Below are positions 3,856 to 16,976 of a DNA stretch of 64,000 nt, in pieces (position 1 is the first letter of the stretch; every line of letters starts with the position of its first letter). Origin of the DNA: an uncultured Gemmatimonadales bacterium (GTDB lineage Bacteria; Gemmatimonadota; Gemmatimonadetes; Gemmatimonadales; Gemmatimonadaceae); the NCBI GenBank assembly GCA_963793305.1, contig CAWBZV010000005.1, forward strand, positions 672,001 through 736,000. Direction: 5' to 3'. The notes under the pieces are model-generated. The model ran no database searches, was not told where the DNA came from, and saw nothing but the letters and a program-made list of their open reading frames with translations. Both the position numbers and the translations under genes were made by a program.

Positions 3856-4743
3856 TCACACCCAGACGAGCCCTAGGCCAATGGCGATCCAGATCATCTC
3901 GCGGATGCGACTGACGATCAATGCGTAGACGCCAAGGTCCGGCGGCAGGCCGAGAAGACTGAAGATCAGCGACATACTGCCTTCTTTGGTGCCGAGCTCG
4001 AACGGGATAAAGAACGTCGCGTTCGTGATAAACTGCGAGAACGCGCCGATCATGAAGGCGGTGGGATAGTCAACGTCGAGGCCGAGTGCCCGGGTAATGA
4101 ACAGATATTCGAGCATCGACAAGCACCGGCCCACGAACTCGGCGCCGACCGCCATGAAGATCGTCCCGCGGGAATACGCCGCGATCTGCTCATGGATCGC
4201 ATTTAGCTTGGGCCAGCGGCGGAACAATCGGGTCCGAGGACGAAAGAGCGCCGCCAGCGCGAGCGAGCCGCCGGCAAACACGGCCGCGAGCGCAATCAGC
4301 GAGACCGTGGTAGCCGGCGTCCGAGGCAGGAGCACGAATGCGACGGGAATCGCGGTGACCCAGAAGATGAGCTGTCCGAGCGTATGGATCACACGAAACC
4401 CAACAACGGACGCGGTCGCGCGCGACGGTTCGACCCACTTCGAAGCAGCGGCTATCCGGAACGGCTCGCCACCCAAGGGTACCAGCGGCGTGACGTAATT
4501 GATCGCGAAGCTCGAGACGCTGATCACGTACGCGCGCCCGAACGGGATGGCTCCGTCGAGCAGCGCGCGCCAAGCAATCGTGTTGCACGCATACACGAGC
4601 GCCCAGGCGACCACCGATGGCACGATCGCCCAGCGCGCCGAAACGAGATTGTGAAGGAGCCCGCGCACCCCAGCGTGCGCGATGAGCACGACAAAGAGCA
4701 CCAAGGCGCCGGCAAATACCAGCGCCTGAATTTTTTTGTTCAC
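3856..4743 (-). CDS. Lysylphosphatidylglycerol-synthase TM region / flippase-like protein
   Basis: Multi-TM; NYVTP..LGGEPFR and P.ELGTKEG motifs; GTG 4743 overlaps upstream stop. Confidence 0.85.
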   Translation of the reverse strand: MNKKIQALVFAGALVLFVVLIAHAGVRGLLHNLVSARWAIVPSVVAWALVYACNTIAWRALLDGAIPFGRAYVISVSSFAINYVTPLVPLGGEPFRIAAASKWVEPSRATASVVGFRVIHTLGQLIFWVTAIPVAFVLLPRTPATTVSLIALAAVFAGGSLALAALFRPRTRLFRRWPKLNAIHEQIAAYSRGTIFMAVGAEFVGRCLSMLEYLFITRALGLDVDYPTAFMIGAFSQFITNATFFIPFELGTKEGSMSLIFSLLGLPPDLGVYALIVSRIREMIWIAIGLGLVWV

Positions 4744-5729
4744 ACGCCCACGGCGCAGCCAGAGCGCGCGGATGCATATGCGGCCTCGACGACCGCCGCC
4801 ACGCGCGTGATGTCCGCGAGCGCCTCGTCGGCCTCCCCACGATCCATCGCGTCGGCGAACGCGCCGAACAAGCCGGCGAACCAACTGGCGTACGATCGCT
4901 TATCGAGCTGCGCGGAGTAGTCGACCTCTTGTCGCGGCTCGCCGGCTCGCTCGAGGCTCAACGTGCCGCCATGCCAGTCGATGGTCCCGCGCTCGCCGAT
5001 GATGCGCACGCGGTTCTCGCGATGCCCGGCGGCCCACGTCAACAATATCGTCGCGATCCGGTCGGCAAACCCAACGAGCAGGTGCGCGGTGTCCTCGACC
5101 TCGTACTCCTGATGTCGCAGTCGTCCAGTCCACGCCTGGACCGTCCGCGGTTCGCCGCCGAGATCGAACAATGAGTACAGGAGATGCGTGCCATGATCGA
5201 GCAAGATGCCACCGCTGCTGTCGGCACGAATTGATCTCCAAGGCACCGCACCGCCGTCAGCCTGAAGCCGATACACAGACAGCTCGGCCAGATGCCAATG
5301 TCCAATGGCTCCCTCCCGCACCCATTCGCCAATCTGCCGCCAGACCGGATTGAACCGATACTGGTGGCAGGGGATGACCACGCGACCGGCCTTCCGCGCG
5401 GCCGTAGCCAGCGTATCCGCGTCCGCACGAGTCACTGCCACGGGCTTCTCGCACAACACGTGGAGGCCGTTCTCCAGCGCCCACAACGCTAGCGGCAGGT
5501 GCGATGATGGCGGCGTGCAGATGTCGATGAAATCGAGCGGCCCAGCAGCAAGTAGGGACGGCCGGTCCCTGAAGAGAGGCACGCCATCGATCGGTCCGAC
5601 GTTGGGATCCGAGTCGAGCGCCGCCACGATCTCCATGCGCGGTGCAGCCGCTTTAAACCCCGGAAGGTGCGCCGTGCGGGCGATGCCGCCCAGGCCGATT
5701 ACCGCGCCTCGATATGCTCGGCGTCCCAC
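4740..5729 (-). CDS. Gfo/Idh/MocA family NAD(P)-dependent oxidoreductase
   Basis: IGLGGIA Rossmann motif, HVLCEKP, GGILLDHGTH; start reassigned to GTG 5729. Confidence 0.9.
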   Translation of the reverse strand: MGRRAYRGAVIGLGGIARTAHLPGFKAAAPRMEIVAALDSDPNVGPIDGVPLFRDRPSLLAAGPLDFIDICTPPSSHLPLALWALENGLHVLCEKPVAVTRADADTLATAARKAGRVVIPCHQYRFNPVWRQIGEWVREGAIGHWHLAELSVYRLQADGGAVPWRSIRADSSGGILLDHGTHLLYSLFDLGGEPRTVQAWTGRLRHQEYEVEDTAHLLVGFADRIATILLTWAAGHRENRVRIIGERGTIDWHGGTLSLERAGEPRQEVDYSAQLDKRSYASWFAGLFGAFADAMDRGEADEALADITRVAAVVEAAYASARSGCAVGV

Positions 5730-6529
5730 ACGAACACGAAGAGGACGAGATTGAGCGGCACCACCGTAATCCACAGCATGGCCGCCGGCCACCCCGGCAC
5801 GACAGTCACCAGCAGCAACAGCCACCGCACGTTCTGCCCGAGCCACATGCACCGCCCGAGCAGCGGCGCCGCGTGTCGGACGTACGCCTCGCGCGCCGCG
5901 GCGGACAGCGTCCCTTGCCGGCGCTGCCGCTCCAGCGCGACCGTGGCCGGGAACATGCTCGCCTGTCGCCGCACCCACGAACCATACAGCCAATTTTTGA
6001 GCGAGCCGCCTTGAAGGTCCTCAGGCAGCTCCAGCTCCGAGTCCTGCCCGCTCATGGCCAGAAACGCGTGCCGTATGAAATCGACGGCCGCCGCCTGCCA
6101 CGTATGGCTCAGCAGCGCGGCCAGCGCCAGCGCGATCGCGCCGGCCACGGGCCACCCGAGGAAGACGATGAGCCGCGCCCCGAGATGCGCGTACAGGTTG
6201 ATGAACCGCGCGCTGTCCGACAGCCCATCGAGCATGCGCCCCAGCGGCGTCGACGTCCCGCGCAGCCGCGCCAGTTGCCCGTCGACGCTATCGAAGATGT
6301 CGGAGACGATGAAGAGCACCCATCCGATCGCGTTGATCTCGATGCTCTGATAGAAGAACAGGTGCCCGGCGACGAGACCCGTCGCCAGGCTCCACATCGT
6401 CACCTGATCGGGCGACACCCGCGTCGGCGCCAGCGCTCGAGCGAGTCGAATCCCGATGGGCCGAAAGAAACGGAGGTCGAGCCACTCCTCGACCTCGTCC
6501 CCTTTCGTCGCCAGCGTGCCAGTCGTCAT
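5699..6529 (-). CDS. CDP-alcohol phosphatidyltransferase family protein
   Basis: DIFDSVDGQLARLRGTSTPLGRMLDGLSD matches DxxDGxxAR..G...D...D; ATG 6529 overlaps upstream TGA. Confidence 0.92.
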   Translation of the reverse strand: MTTGTLATKGDEVEEWLDLRFFRPIGIRLARALAPTRVSPDQVTMWSLATGLVAGHLFFYQSIEINAIGWVLFIVSDIFDSVDGQLARLRGTSTPLGRMLDGLSDSARFINLYAHLGARLIVFLGWPVAGAIALALAALLSHTWQAAAVDFIRHAFLAMSGQDSELELPEDLQGGSLKNWLYGSWVRRQASMFPATVALERQRRQGTLSAAAREAYVRHAAPLLGRCMWLGQNVRWLLLLVTVVPGWPAAMLWITVVPLNLVLFVFVWDAEHIEAR

Positions 6530-7860
6530 ACCCGCGCGGCGGCTTCGCCCAACACACCCTTCATGACGGCGAGCGCGCTCATCGCCTGCTCGGTCGTGAT
6601 CACGAGCGGCGGGTTGATCCGCACTTCGGGGTTGTAGATCATCGCCAGCACGCCCCTCGCGAGGAGCGTGTCGAAGATCCATCGCGCGATGTCTTTCGGC
6701 AGAAGCTTGGTCGTGCCCGGATAGACGAGATCCATGCCGATCATGAGCCCGCGCCCGCGGACGTCACTGACGATCGGGATGTCTTTCTCCCACGTTTTCA
6801 TCTCGGCCATCATAGTGGCGCCGAGCACACGACTATGCTCGACGAGCCCCTCTTCGATGATGGTCTCGATGCTCACCCGTGCCGCCGCGGCCGCCAGCGG
6901 ATTCCCGCCGTAGCTCGACGAGCTCCCGCTCGGATTCGCCCAGGGCTTGGCCCGCGCGATCTCCTCGCGCGCGATGATGCCCGTCATCGGGAATCCACCG
7001 CCGAACCCTTTCCCGACCGTCATGATATCGGGCAACACCTCCTCGTGCTCGATCGCGAACATCTTCCCGGTTCGCCCGAACCCGGTCAGCATTTCGTCAG
7101 CAATCAGCACGGCGCCGATGCTATCCGCGAATTTTCTGAGGATCCGCAGGTAGCCGGGGGGCGGCACGATGTTGCCCGCCGTCCCCTGGATCGGCTCGAC
7201 GATGATCGCCGCGACGTCATTCGAGGTCTCGAGCGCGATTTTCTTTTGCAAGAACTCGACGCAATGCCACTCGCACGAGGGAAATGTCTTGTCGAACGCG
7301 CAGCGAGCACAGGAGGCGTACGGCGAGCTGTAGGTACCCGGCATCAGCGGCCCCAGCCCGTGCTTGAAGGAGCCACCGAGCAAGGGAAGGACGCCGGCGG
7401 TCTTGCCGTGGAATCCGCCCCAGAAGCCGACAAACTCGGTCTTCCCAGTCCACGCCTTCGCTAGTCTGAATGCCGACTCGACGGCCTCGGCGCCGCTCGA
7501 ATAGAGCTGTGTCCGATTGAGATCCCCGGGCGTGATGTCGGCGATCAGCTTGACCAGCGCAACCCGATGCTCCGACGTAAAGCTGCCGACATGCACCCGT
7601 GCAACTTGCCGCTGCATGGCCGCGACGAACTTGGGATGCGCATACCCGAGACTGGCCACGCCGACCCCGGCCAACAGATCCGTGTAGCACTTCCCGTCGA
7701 CATCATAAAGGAGCGCGCCTTCGCCGTGGTCGATGCTCAGCTTGCTGAACAGCGCGACGCTCTGCGTACCGGGCGCGAGATAGGCGGACTCGGCGTCAAA
7801 CGCCGCCAAAGACTTTGGACCGGCCGCTGTCTCTGGCCGTGGCTGAACCGTCAACGTCAC
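6526..7860 (-). CDS. Class III PLP-dependent aminotransferase
   Basis: SSGAEAVE, GGFHG, VEPIQG, DEMLTGFGRTG, PDIMTVGKG, SYGGNP. Confidence 0.92.
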   Translation of the reverse strand: MTLTVQPRPETAAGPKSLAAFDAESAYLAPGTQSVALFSKLSIDHGEGALLYDVDGKCYTDLLAGVGVASLGYAHPKFVAAMQRQVARVHVGSFTSEHRVALVKLIADITPGDLNRTQLYSSGAEAVESAFRLAKAWTGKTEFVGFWGGFHGKTAGVLPLLGGSFKHGLGPLMPGTYSSPYASCARCAFDKTFPSCEWHCVEFLQKKIALETSNDVAAIIVEPIQGTAGNIVPPPGYLRILRKFADSIGAVLIADEMLTGFGRTGKMFAIEHEEVLPDIMTVGKGFGGGFPMTGIIAREEIARAKPWANPSGSSSSYGGNPLAAAAARVSIETIIEEGLVEHSRVLGATMMAEMKTWEKDIPIVSDVRGRGLMIGMDLVYPGTTKLLPKDIARWIFDTLLARGVLAMIYNPEVRINPPLVITTEQAMSALAVMKGVLGEAAARV

Positions 7861-8753
7861 TTCGACTGAATCCTCGGTGGAAGCGGGGGGTCCGGGGGGC
7901 GTACTTGGGGTTGCCCCCCGGAGGCGAACCGACCAGTCGAGCGGCGCGCCAGCGCCGAATCGACGAGCCGCGGAGCGGCTTCGTCAGCGTACGCGGCAAT
8001 GTGCCGCGCTGCCTCGTCGCGAAATGGCGCGAAGCTCGGCCAGTCGTTGAGATCAATCAGCACGGGCCGATCTGGTTCCGGAAACGCGACATCACCCCCG
8101 AAAACGCCCAGCCCAAGCCGCTCGGCGGCGGCAAACGCCAAGGTCTTCAACCGCTCGCCGTCCACGTCATCGGCGCCGTAGTACCGGAAGAATCGCCCGT
8201 CGGCGACGCCGTAGAACTTCACGATCGGCCCGGCCACGTGTTCCTGCATCGCCACCCGCGCGATGCCGCGCGCGGCAAACACGCGCAACGCCTCGGGGAT
8301 CTCCTCGCGCCAGAGCGATACGACATCCTCGGCCCGCTCGGCGTGCACGTCGCCGCGCTTGAGCCAGACGCGCCGCCCGTCCGCGCCAAACCCGTCGAGC
8401 TCAGGATCGCCGCTCGTCGGAACGATCGCGGTGCGCGGAATCTGATCGCCGAGGAGCACCACCATCTTGTGCCGGTGACACCCGAGCACGCTCGACGGGC
8501 GATTCATGATCGGCAGCCCCGCGTGCTCGAGCGAAAGCAAACGCTCCGACGCCGCGGGTCCTTGGCACATGTTCAGCACCAGATCGGCGTCGGTCAGCAG
8601 CTCCAGCTCGAAGGTGCTCTCGTTGGCGCGCGTCGCCGACCAGCCGAGGGCTTCCAGCTCGGCCACCGTGGCATCGAGAATGGCGGTGTCGTTCGTCCGA
8701 TGCTGATTCGGCGAGTACGACGCCTGCCGATAGAGCGCGACGAGCCGCTTCAC
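7857..8753 (-). CDS. ATP-grasp fold protein with ITPK1-like motifs
   Basis: VWLKRG, MQEHVAG..KFYGV, LGLGVFGGD, IDLNDWPSF. Confidence 0.75.
   Translation of the reverse strand: MKRLVALYRQASYSPNQHRTNDTAILDATVAELEALGWSATRANESTFELELLTDADLVLNMCQGPAASERLLSLEHAGLPIMNRPSSVLGCHRHKMVVLLGDQIPRTAIVPTSGDPELDGFGADGRRVWLKRGDVHAERAEDVVSLWREEIPEALRVFAARGIARVAMQEHVAGPIVKFYGVADGRFFRYYGADDVDGERLKTLAFAAAERLGLGVFGGDVAFPEPDRPVLIDLNDWPSFAPFRDEAARHIAAYADEAAPRLVDSALARRSTGRFASGGQPQVRPPDPPLPPRIQSK
7885..7985. repeat. REP-like palindromic element inside the 3' end of the ATP-grasp gene
   Basis: Perfect 9-bp inverted repeat CCGGGGGGC (7892-7900) / GCCCCCCGG (7913-7921); hairpins CGGCGC-GCCA-GCGCCG and GCCGC-GGA-GCGGC; 19-mer 7961-7979 identical to 41378-41396. 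Confidence 0.55.
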
Positions 8754-9469
8754 AACGCCAATGCCTCAGTGGCGAGCAGCGCGTCGGCGGCGTCGATATC
8801 GCGCTTGTGGTCGAGATCGACGATCAGCGCCACCTCGGTCGTCGCCACGCGGGCGCCCTCGTCGACGAGCGCCGACAAGAAATAGCGCATGCGGGATCCG
8901 CCGTCGCGCCAGACGCGCAACGCCGTTGTCCGCGCCCGTGGCCCGAACGCGTAGACGCCACCCGTCACGCACGGCGGCATCACCGGCCGGCTGCCGATCC
9001 GAATGGCGTCGCCACCCGGGGCCCGCTCGACCCACAGGGGCCGCTCGTCGTCGACATGCGGCGTCACCGCGAGAACGACGTCAGCGCTGTCAGCGATGTG
9101 ACGAATCGACTCGTCATAGACTCGTTGCCAATCGCGCGCGGGCATGACGGTATCGACCATGCTGCAGAACACCGGACCGGGCGGCATGCGGAGCAGCGCC
9201 TCGGCGAGCGTATGCAGCGACAATGGGGTCTCGCACGCGATCACCCGAGGACGGCCGATCGACAACTCGATGTTGCGCACCGAGGCGATGACCTCGGGGA
9301 AGGTCGACCGGATCATGCAGGTGATGTCCTGACATCCGATCGCACCGAACGTCTCCGCGAGCCGCAGGATCTGCGATCGCCCCGCGACGGACACCGCCGC
9401 CTTCGGCTCGGCCACGCCATCGGCCGCGAGTCGCGAGCCCTCTCCGCCCGCGAGGATCAGGCCGTGCAC
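8750..9469 (-). CDS. NTP-transferase (sugar/polyol-phosphate nucleotidyltransferase)
   Basis: LILAGGEGSRL..PK motif; C-terminal DLD; start reassigned to GTG 9469. Confidence 0.88.
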   Translation of the reverse strand: MHGLILAGGEGSRLAADGVAEPKAAVSVAGRSQILRLAETFGAIGCQDITCMIRSTFPEVIASVRNIELSIGRPRVIACETPLSLHTLAEALLRMPPGPVFCSMVDTVMPARDWQRVYDESIRHIADSADVVLAVTPHVDDERPLWVERAPGGDAIRIGSRPVMPPCVTGGVYAFGPRARTTALRVWRDGGSRMRYFLSALVDEGARVATTEVALIVDLDHKRDIDAADALLATEALAL

Positions 9470-10155
9470 ACGACCTCGGGCAGCTCGGTGAGCGACGCGA
9501 TGCGCGCGGTCGGCGCGCAATCGTTCGGCGTCTCGCGCTCGGGCTCCGTCAGCCAACACGTACAGAGTCCCAGCGTGCGCGCGGGCCGAATGTCGGCGTC
9601 GAGATTGTCGCCGACGATCCACGCCGCGCCGGGCTCGACATCGAGCGCGGCCAACGTCGCGTTGAAGATCTCCGGATCGGGCTTCGACGTGCCGAGCACG
9701 CCCGAGTCCGACACCGTCTGGAAGTAGTTCGTGAGGCCGAGCTCCGCGAGACAGCACGACAAATTGCCGGTGAAATTCGAGACGATGCCGAGTCGATACC
9801 GATCCGCCAGACTGGAGAGCACGCGCGCGTTCCGTTCGGTCGTGCGCACGGCGTCGCGGTGAAAACGATCCGCGACCTCGGTGAAGTCGATAGTGGCGCC
9901 GTCGGGTACCATCTCCTGCAGCAGCTGCGCTTGGGCATCGATCATTGCGCGAAATCCGAGACGCCGAATATCCGGCCGTCTCTCGAGTGCACGATCAGAT
10001 GCTCGGAAGACCGTCTCAAAGTTCCCGGAATCCAGGGAGCCGCCGAGTCCCCTATAGGCCGCGTGGAAGCGAGTGCTCCACCTCAGGCCGTCAGCGTCGA
10101 GCGTTCCGCCAAAGTCGAAGAGTACCGCGCGAACAGGGGTGGCTGATTGCACCAC
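9457..10155 (-). CDS. HAD-superfamily hydrolase
   Basis: FDFGGTLD, VSN, KPDPEIF, VGDNLDAD. Confidence 0.9.
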   Translation of the reverse strand: MVQSATPVRAVLFDFGGTLDADGLRWSTRFHAAYRGLGGSLDSGNFETVFRASDRALERRPDIRRLGFRAMIDAQAQLLQEMVPDGATIDFTEVADRFHRDAVRTTERNARVLSSLADRYRLGIVSNFTGNLSCCLAELGLTNYFQTVSDSGVLGTSKPDPEIFNATLAALDVEPGAAWIVGDNLDADIRPARTLGLCTCWLTEPERETPNDCAPTARIASLTELPEVVCTA

Positions 10156-10195: not shown

Positions 10196-11923
<1,728 letters not shown>

Positions 11924-15601: not shown

Positions 15602-16976
15602 ATGACGGTCGCACCAGAAATCTTCCGTGAGTATGACATCCGCGGCTTGGTCGGCTCGGAGCTCGACGCCGACACGGCGCGCGACGTCGGCCGCGCCTTT
15701 GCCGTCTATCTCGACGACATCGGCGTTCACGGACCGATCGCGGTGGGGCGCGACAACCGGCCGAGCGGGGATGCCCTGCGCGACGCACTCGTTGCATCGC
15801 TCACCGAGTCTGGAGTCGATGTGATCGAACGTCGGGGTTGTGCCGACGCCGACGCTGTATTGGGCGCTCGAGAAACTCGGAGTCGGAGGCGGGGTCCAGA
15901 TCACCGCGTCTCACAATCCAGCGCCGTATAACGGGTTTAAGGTCTGCGTCGGTACGAACGCTCTCTACGGCGAGGACATTCAGAAGCTTCTGGTGCTCGT
16001 TGAAACGGGGAAGCGGGTCACCCCCAACACGCCAGGCTCGGTACGACAAGAGGCGATCCTCGACCGCTATCTCGACGATATCGTTTCCCGCATCGGCCCA
16101 TTGGCCCGCCCGTTGTCGATCGCGCTTGACTGCGCCAACGGCGTCGGCTCGCTCGTCGGCCCGCGCCTCATGGACCGCCTGGGCGTCAAGGTCACGCAGT
16201 GCTTGCTGTGCACGAGCGATGGCCGGTTCCCCAAGCGGCAGCCAGACCCGAGTCAAGCGAAAAACCTGGCCGATCTCCAACAAGCGGTTCGCGCCACATC
16301 CGCCCAGGTGGGTATCGCGCTTGACGGCGACGCGGATCGAATTGGCGTCGTCGACGAGCACGGCGAAATCGTCTGGGGCGACCGCGTGCTCGCGATCTAC
16401 GCCCGCAATGTGCTGGCACGGAATCCGGGCAAGCCCGTGATCTTCGACGTGAAGTGCTCCGAAGCACTGCCGCAAGCGATCACGGCGGCTGGCGGCAAGC
16501 CATTCATGTGGCGCACCGGACACTCGCTCATCTTGGCGAAGATGCACGAGATCCACGCGCCATTGGCCGGCGAGCTCTCGGGGCACATGTACATCGCCAA
16601 TGGCTACTACGGTTATGATGATGCTCTGTACGCCGCCGCCCGGCTGCTCTCGATCATGGCGTCGTCTGGTAAGACCATCACCGAGCTGCTCGCTGGCGTT
16701 CCGGTCTACCCGTCCACGGACGAGATTCGCGTCGATTGCCCGGACGACAAGAAGTTTGGCATCGTGGCCAACGCGGTCACCCACTGGCAAGCGAATCACA
16801 CGGTGATCAACGTCGACGGCGCGCGCGTGTTGTTCAATGGCGGCTGGGGCTTGATCAGAGCGTCGAACACGCAACCCGCACTGGTGCTGCGATTCGAGGC
16901 GCACACGCAGCAAGAGCTCACGTCGATACAGAACGAAATGCAAGGCTGGCTCCGCCAACAGGGTGTCGCCATCTAA
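15602..16976 (+). CDS. Phosphomannomutase/phosphoglucomutase (apparent +1 frameshift at 15828-15829)
   Basis: IFREYDIRG, VGRDNRPS; ITASHNP, DGDADR, GELSGH, IRASNTQP. Confidence 0.92.

Follow-up and report, generated by a model that had tools for sequence, protein, structure and literature searches.

A 64,000-nucleotide stretch of DNA from an uncultured Gemmatimonadales bacterium (contig CAWBZV010000005.1, positions 672,001 to 736,000; here termed the window, and numbered from its first letter) carries a run of seven genes on the minus strand that overlap or abut one another. The third gene of this operon encodes an ATP-grasp protein of a large family that has no name and that is distinct from the ITPK1 family of inositol phosphate kinases. 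Its relatives are a constant, overlooked member of the ‘alternative’ inositol-lipid cluster of the Bacteroidetes, and the residues of its predicted active site suggest that it may act as a kinase in the making of the lipid head group. The genes, in operon order, and a repeat that lies within the third of them are as follows.

9457..10155, minus strand: HAD-family phosphatase, first gene of the operon (PF00702, E 4e-15; 31% identity to the HAD protein of the Bacteroides finegoldii cluster)
8750..9469, minus strand: nucleotidyltransferase (PF12804), fused to the ATP-grasp domain in relatives
7857..8753, minus strand: ATP-grasp protein of the unnamed family, domain at approximately residues 1-267
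7881..7980, no strand: GC-rich palindromic genomic repeat of approximately 95 bp, present as an in-frame insertion in the 3' end of the ATP-grasp gene
6526..7860, minus strand: class-III pyridoxal-phosphate aminotransferase, part of an optional amination module (PF00202, E 2e-92)
5699..6529, minus strand: CDP-alcohol phosphotransferase (PF01066; 30% identity to the B. finegoldii cluster enzyme)
4740..5729, minus strand: Gfo/Idh/MocA NAD(P) dehydrogenase, part of the optional amination module (PF01408/PF22725)
3856..4743, minus strand: LPG-synthase TM (LPG-TM; flippase-like) membrane protein, final gene (PF03706, E 7e-23)

The ATP-grasp open reading frame (8753-7857, 298 amino acids, GTG start) is confirmed as a real gene, with its nearest relatives in metagenome-assembled genomes of Gemmatimonadaceae (82-95% identity). 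The three motifs singled out by the first-pass annotation, which had been made from the sequence without database searches, are all present in it: QEHVAGPIVKFYGV at residues 170-183 (8246-8205), LGLGVFGGDV at residues 213-222 (8117-8088) and IDLNDWPSF at residues 233-241 (8057-8031). They are not there by chance, since K179, N236 and P239 are invariant across 117 aligned family members and D221 and D234 are each kept in 116, with glutamate never found at position 234. The predicted structure (predicted local distance difference test score, pLDDT, 96.2) confirms the ATP-grasp fold that had been assigned. The C-terminal 31 or so residues lie outside the domain and are the product of the palindromic repeat, which accounts for a 93-base in-frame insertion relative to the two closest loci (L001 and L002) and which has 87 BLAST matches, itself included, over 13 contigs of the host genome, 25 of them of at least 90 bp. 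Approximately 90 extra bases are also apparent in L001, at a different junction of the same operon. The gene had been placed between a nucleotidyltransferase and a CDP-alcohol transferase; this is correct on the nucleotidyltransferase side, but on the other side the aminotransferase adjoins it and the CDP-alcohol transferase lies one gene further on.

The predicted catalytic set of the protein comprises R94, K132, H137, K179, D221, D234 and N236, of which R94, like K179, is found in all 117 family members. The family was aligned by profile with 13 eukaryotic ITPKs, obtained by a motif scan of metagenome contigs, and with 18 RimK/LysX-type ligases. R94, K179 and D234-x-N236 align with the arginine, the lysine (K199 in the numbering of PMC6900528) and the DxN of all 13 ITPKs, whose aspartate was preselected by the search motif whilst the arginine and lysine were not, whereas the columns of R94, K179 and D234 hold lysine, arginine and glutamate in all 18 RimK-type proteins. 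Relative to RimK, LysX and ArgX, the family has thus replaced the lysine of DK, the arginine of DxR, the glutamate of ExN and the GxxGxG loop, and it sits in a lipid-pathway context; in place of the glycine loop after the ATP-binding lysine stands KRGDVHAxxxxDV, with D143 (116/117) where RimK has glycine. The Asp1 kinase is reported to use Arg123, Lys197, His204, Lys260, Asp321, Asp333 and Asn335, of which Lys260 connects the gamma-phosphate with the acceptor (PMC9765450), and the seven residues of the window protein fall in the same order, a match made by order and not by superposition. Read in this way, the predicted set is of the kinase type of ITPK1 and Asp1/PPIP5K and not of the ligase type. 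Identity to the Asp1/Vip1/PPIP5K kinase domain (PDB 3t54) is 12%, and neither the cage of nine basic residues described there for IP6/IP7 nor the phosphatase domain (PMC9765450) is seen in the window protein.

The proposal that the motifs are kinase-like and ITPK1-like therefore stands for the R/K/DxN residues, but it fails for the residues with which ITPK1 holds its substrate. H167 and R212, described together with K199 as the most conserved inositol-phosphate contacts of ITPK1 (PMC6900528), correspond to the variable residue 142 (E/G/D) and to residue 192, which is mostly Y or F. The histidine of the ‘QEF..H’ motif is likewise missing, as H172 aligns with the phenylalanine of QEF; H137 may stand in for H167. 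Putative acceptor-side residues are R9, D22, Q64, R133, D135, D143, D237 and W238. The loss of H167 and R212, together with the retention of the acidic D22, D135, D143 and D237, is more in keeping with a neutral or amino polyol as acceptor than with a polyphosphate.

Membership of the ITPK1 family, as the first-pass annotation had suggested, is not borne out by the profile searches. The window protein had no match to PF05770 at E <= 1, let alone one at the cut-off, and only 9 of 117 family members matched at E <= 0.05 (best 0.0022); in the five genomes carrying the family that were searched, no protein passed the PF05770 cut-off. The pre-ATP-grasp domain PF17927 was found in 0/117 members at E <= 0.05. 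In contrast, the four eukaryotic ITPK controls checked scored 105-275 bits on PF05770 and all carried PF17927, three of them over the cut-off. In a quick tree of 79 rows the family formed its own clade (support 99) apart from that of the ITPKs (100), with deep branches at 54-82. It differs from the known ITPK1 family (PF05770 plus PF17927; PDB 2qb5, 1z2n, 7pup and 8oxe; Lokiarchaeal LcIKA-D), which acts on soluble inositol polyphosphates, whereas the window family is tied to a CDP-head-group lipid pathway. Nor does it pass as a named ligase: the PF08443/TIGR00768 cut-off was not reached, the window protein had no NCBIfam match, and 8 of 117 members matched PF08443 weakly (in this test P0329 scored 30.9 bits against a cut-off of 143.4). 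Within the family, a subfamily has N-A/S-W-P instead of N-D-W-P (P0153, P0205, P0221, P0245, P0260, P0265 and others), with glutamate at position 64 in 9 of 13. A second, prokaryote-looking ATP-grasp family, with the motif DVNYFPGYKG, was met at loci L141-L214 (for example L159:513-6027, L197:195-4570, L187:1095-4988 and L182:348-5433). It is nearer to ITPK1 than the window family is (profile E 1.9e-26, several members above the PF05770 cut-off), and two to four of its paralogues stand in a row, accompanied by genes for a mannitol-dehydrogenase-like protein and an MFS transporter and, at some loci, for a phytase or an inositol monophosphatase.

The gene neighbourhood was compared across 145 loci, 118 of which had enough flanking sequence (two pairs are identical DNA fetched twice, and related loci are not independent). 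The nucleotidyltransferase and the CDP-alcohol transferase are each present in 117 of the 118, the HAD gene in 115, the LPG-TM gene in 92 and MIPS in 61. The aminotransferase and the dehydrogenase behave as a unit: 69 loci have both, 49 have neither and none has a single one. Because 49 loci are without the aminotransferase, the core reaction needs no amine. Gene fusions tell of the same partners; amongst 12 long relatives scanned, seven have the nucleotidyltransferase as their sole fusion partner, one is joined to both HAD and nucleotidyltransferase, one to HAD and one to the CDP-alcohol transferase, and the remaining two had no Pfam match. Tandem duplicates of the ATP-grasp gene (L121, L123, L124 and L127) were seen only where the cluster includes the amination module; genome G105 also has a second cluster, which lacks the module. 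In several Ignavibacteria loci (L059:5383-7883, L067, L070 and L080) a trio of ABC transporter genes, MlaE/MlaF/MlaD-like as read from their sequences, separates the nucleotidyltransferase from the ATP-grasp gene.

The nucleotidyltransferase is probably a cyclitol-phosphate cytidylyltransferase, judged by its profile: among 60 PDB matches listed, only 4jd0, 2xme and 4mnd span the whole of it, and these are the three inositol-1-phosphate cytidylyltransferase (IPCT) entries among the matches (for 4jd0, see PMC12275187). Its top-scoring matches are generic sugar-1-phosphate enzymes. The CDP-alcohol phosphotransferase has AF2299 as its top PDB profile match. In the amination module, the aminotransferase is 54-80% identical across 17 orthologues and reached none of the curated equivalog models, whilst the dehydrogenase, whose GTG start at 5729 is set from the reading frame, has a weak match to IolG, far under the cut-off.

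In B. finegoldii the order of genes is MIPS, NDP-sugar synthase, a hypothetical protein that is a member of the ATP-grasp family (34% identity), CDP-alcohol transferase, LPG-TM and HAD, and the clusters of Parabacteroides distasonis and Prevotella nigrescens have a like arrangement; four named Bacteroidales records were searched and three viewed, with the ATP-grasp gene between the nucleotidyltransferase and the CDP-alcohol transferase. The window holds homologues of the B. finegoldii NTP transferase, CDP-alcohol transferase and HAD (E 4e-27, 6e-35 and 2e-24, respectively). B. finegoldii is scored as a cluster carrier in a table of Heaver et al. 2022, whose ‘putative alternative inositol lipid cluster’ is the Bacteroidales counterpart of the window cluster (PMC9246714). 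According to the same paper, the carriers Phocaeicola (Bacteroides) vulgatus and Prevotella veroralis make phosphoinositol dihydroceramide (PI-DHC), CDP-inositol is modelled as arising directly from inositol phosphate, and the alternative pathway is unconfirmed even in B. vulgatus. The published model omits this centrally placed gene of the cluster: ‘ATP-grasp’ occurs 0 times in the main text and eight supplements, and BVU_RS13100, which from the order of locus tags would be the B. vulgatus member of the family, goes unmentioned there (PMC9246714). Compared with the published cluster, in which the nucleotidyltransferase, CDP-alcohol transferase, HAD and LPG-TM proteins are homologous to those of the window (30-31% identity to B. 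finegoldii), the window adds the dehydrogenase and the aminotransferase and has its MIPS elsewhere. The single MIPS of the host genome (contig C5:972096-973403) is not beside the cluster but approximately 290 kb from the operon, and directly before it is a gene resembling phosphatidylinositol phosphate synthase (166.5 bits, cut-off 170; L081, C5:971383-973403), which argues that ordinary phosphatidylinositol has a separate, canonical route in the host.

Whether a kinase would be needed depends on where the inositol comes from. A CDP-inositol route that starts from free inositol requires an inositol kinase. Tannerella forsythia is reported to lack MIPS and to rely on the medium for all the inositol of its lipid, and the authors of that study describe finding no inositol kinase candidate (PMC4587543). 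Amongst the species with all three cluster genes in Supplementary Table 5 of Heaver et al., 11 of 49 have no MIPS match (a tally made by eye, from parts 3-4 of the 5 parts of that table), and two of these 11, P. distasonis (of which the strain differs from that in the table) and Parabacteroides chinchillae, carry the ATP-grasp family. The ATP-grasp gene is thus a candidate for the missing myo-inositol kinase of the Bacteroidales. It would not serve salvage only, as 85 of the 88 genomes with the family also have MIPS (48/50 and 37/38).

A link between the ATP-grasp protein and amination is suggested by residue 64, the only column of the family that separates clusters with the amination module from those without it across lineages. 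It lies in the loop that follows strand 3, two positions beyond the one aligned with the conserved loop lysine of ITPKs. With lineage classes assigned by likeness to titled loci, Gln64 accompanies the module in 73/73 cases (53/53 informative Gemmatimonadota proteins and 20/20 single-copy Ignavibacteria-like clusters), and Arg64 its absence in 51/51 (5/5 Gemmatimonadota and 46/46 Ignavibacteria-like). In three of the four tandem pairs, one copy carries Gln and the other Arg. The orthologues of P. distasonis (WP_122115030.1) and B. finegoldii (WP_007749659.1) are of the Arg64 type. Amongst six loci outside the main classes, four with the module have Gln and L287, without it, has Arg. No column that tracks the module was found in the nucleotidyltransferase or the CDP-alcohol transferase. 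As a lead, and not a result, this suggests that it is the ATP-grasp enzyme that meets the aminated product.

From the gene, fold, residue set, neighbourhoods and co-variation described above we infer the following chemistry, acceptor, order of steps and lipid product. That the ATP-grasp enzyme is a head-group kinase of some sort is likely; that it phosphorylates a free cyclitol (here probably inosamine) for CDP activation is the reading we favour, with confidence that stops somewhat short of even. Free inositol would come from uptake, or from release by HAD of MIPS-made inositol 3-phosphate. In the basic cluster of the Bacteroidota, myo-inositol itself would be the acceptor, whilst in the window cluster the dehydrogenase and aminotransferase would turn inositol via inosose into inosamine, a hydroxyl of which would then be phosphorylated by the Gln64-type, Mg-ATP-dependent ATP-grasp kinase. 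The adjacent nucleotidyltransferase would make the CDP-cyclitol, the CDP-alcohol transferase would attach the cyclitol head group to diacylglycerol or ceramide, and the LPG-TM protein would flip the finished lipid. Ceramide as a possible acceptor is suggested by a three-gene run of sphingolipid type some 5-9 kb beyond the end of the operon, outside the window (L331:9123-12569, C5:667123-670569). It begins with a serine-palmitoyltransferase-like gene (best model NF047600, 532 bits, cut-off 640), followed by two genes that we take to be a ceramide synthase-like gene and a reductase; the former had no NCBIfam match, and the latter is an NAD-dependent epimerase/reductase. The fuller proposition is doubtful: that the family represents a bacterial line of ATP-grasp kinases, third beside ITPK1 and PPIP5K and separate from both, and is the sought myo-inositol kinase of those Bacteroidota that build inositol lipids from free inositol, that in Gemmatimonadota and Ignavibacteria one Arg-to-Gln exchange has shifted its preference to inosamine, and that the product of the operon there is a novel phospholipid or phosphosphingolipid with an amino-inositol head group.

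The cyclitol or cyclitol-phosphate kinase put forward in the first-pass annotation is thus partly supported, by the kinase-type residues and the lipid-cluster context and not by kinship with ITPK1, and a number of observations weigh against our version of it. The nearest fold match of the model is RimK/LysX, and by fold as well as by profile (E 1.4e-19 to RimK/LysX against 1.9e-9 to ITPKs) it is closer to RimK/LysX/Ddl than to ITPK1, the reverse of the kinship first suggested. The DxN motif is not exclusive to kinases, as it occurs in two other uncharacterised proteins (C3:162616-164670 and C19:29281-30303) among 15 ATP-grasp-like matches in the host genome. With MIPS in nearly all the genomes, the nucleotidyltransferase could use inositol 3-phosphate directly and a kinase is not strictly needed. 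HAD is retained in the MIPS-less cluster of P. distasonis, where no inositol 3-phosphate would need removal. No T. forsythia gene is among the 120 matches listed for the family, and Megson et al. reported no IPCT in that species; six other Prevotella, with BT-type genes and lacking the full alternative cluster, also have no MIPS match in the supplementary table. As to residue 64, its link with the module amounts to one to three contrasts that are independent (p = 1 by sign test), a single column also emerged from one control pattern, both copies of one tandem pair have Arg, and L139, which lacks the module, has Gln64 although the aminotransferase is found nowhere in its genome.

An alternative that we consider unlikely, but which survives best of those weighed, is an inositol-monophosphate kinase: inositol 3-phosphate, or its aminated form, would be phosphorylated at a second position, the bisphosphate would be CDP-activated and transferred to lipid, and HAD would remove the extra phosphate last. 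The kinase-type residues fit this equally well, ITPK1 is reported to phosphorylate I(3)P1 and I(1)P1, and Asgard ITPK genes are described as flanking inositol-phosphate synthase genes (PMC6900528). The prevalence of MIPS and the retention of HAD even without MIPS agree with it too, as does the P. veroralis fusion of HAD with the membrane transferase (PMC9246714), an arrangement in keeping with a late step, and the Arg64 of the basic cluster could bind a phosphate. In a variant, ADP-mediated transfer of phosphate would isomerize the monophosphate, much as an IP4 isomerase activity has been reported for plant ITPK4 (PMC8024741). What tells against such a kinase is that equivalents of H167 and R212 are missing, that retention of the gene in MIPS-less species is unexplained unless inositol phosphate is imported, and that PI-DHC is the lipid detected in B. 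vulgatus and P. veroralis, whilst the part of that study available reports no polyphosphorylated product.

Considerably less probable is a kinase for something other than a cyclitol, be it a nucleotide (in CMP/CDP recycling), some other polyol head group or, on the model of CpgB, the ceramide kinase of Caulobacter, the lipid acceptor. The residue set is uninformative about the acceptor, the Caulobacter ceramide kinase is described as acting together with a cytidylyltransferase and CDP-alcohol transferases (PMC12275187), and the best PDB scores of the nucleotidyltransferase go to generic sugar-1-phosphate enzymes; against this stand the soluble ATP-grasp domain with its polar, conserved site, the adjacency of MIPS in 61/118 loci and the switch at residue 64, which follows a module that modifies the head group. 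Least probable, by a little, is a carboxylate-activating ligase that would decorate the head group, for instance at the amine of inosamine, with an amino acid or acyl group as an amide or ester via an acyl-phosphate: although its nearest folds are those of ligases, fold rank fails to separate kinases from ligases, R, K and D stand where RimK-type proteins have K, R and E and the glycine loop is absent, the amine-forming module is missing in 49/118 loci, and species with the basic cluster are reported to make plain PI-DHC.

The chemistry proposed is known in kind, from ATP-grasp inositol kinases, and the cluster has already been published as putative. If the ATP-grasp protein is a cyclitol kinase, the route would gain a step, and species without MIPS could use inositol from the host or diet, which bears on the question of the missing bacterial inositol kinase (PMC4587543); ATP-grasp inositol-kinase chemistry would then extend beyond eukaryotes and Asgard archaea. 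For gut and oral Bacteroidota, inositol lipids are reported to influence fitness within the host (PMC9246714). The IPCT/BEPIS route of Rhodothermus marinus and the IPCT/DIPPS route (PMC4587543; PDB 2xme, 4mnd and 4jd0) resemble the proposed pathway in activating inositol as CDP-inositol before a CDP-alcohol transferase acts; they differ in that the inositol phosphate of MIPS is used directly, with no kinase described in the account available, and their sequences are only distantly related to those of the window. The amination variant predicts a cationic inositol lipid; a literature search that mostly lay outside subscription journals yielded no description of one and no paper naming or assaying the ATP-grasp family. 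A parallel for the amination branch is the streptidine pathway, which runs from inositol through scyllo-inosose and scyllo-inosamine to an inosamine phosphate. It has the same chemical logic as the dehydrogenase, aminotransferase and kinase proposed here, but uses other enzyme classes and ends in an antibiotic.

Elsewhere in the window, a phosphomannomutase-like gene (15602-16976) and a multicopper-oxidase-like gene (295-2271), both named from their sequences, each appear to be split over two frames, possibly through frameshifts or assembly errors. Upstream of the operon and on the same strand lies a gene for a Ser/Thr protein kinase with a zinc ribbon and tetratricopeptide repeats (10196-11923, minus strand), whose position is kept only in the two closest loci.

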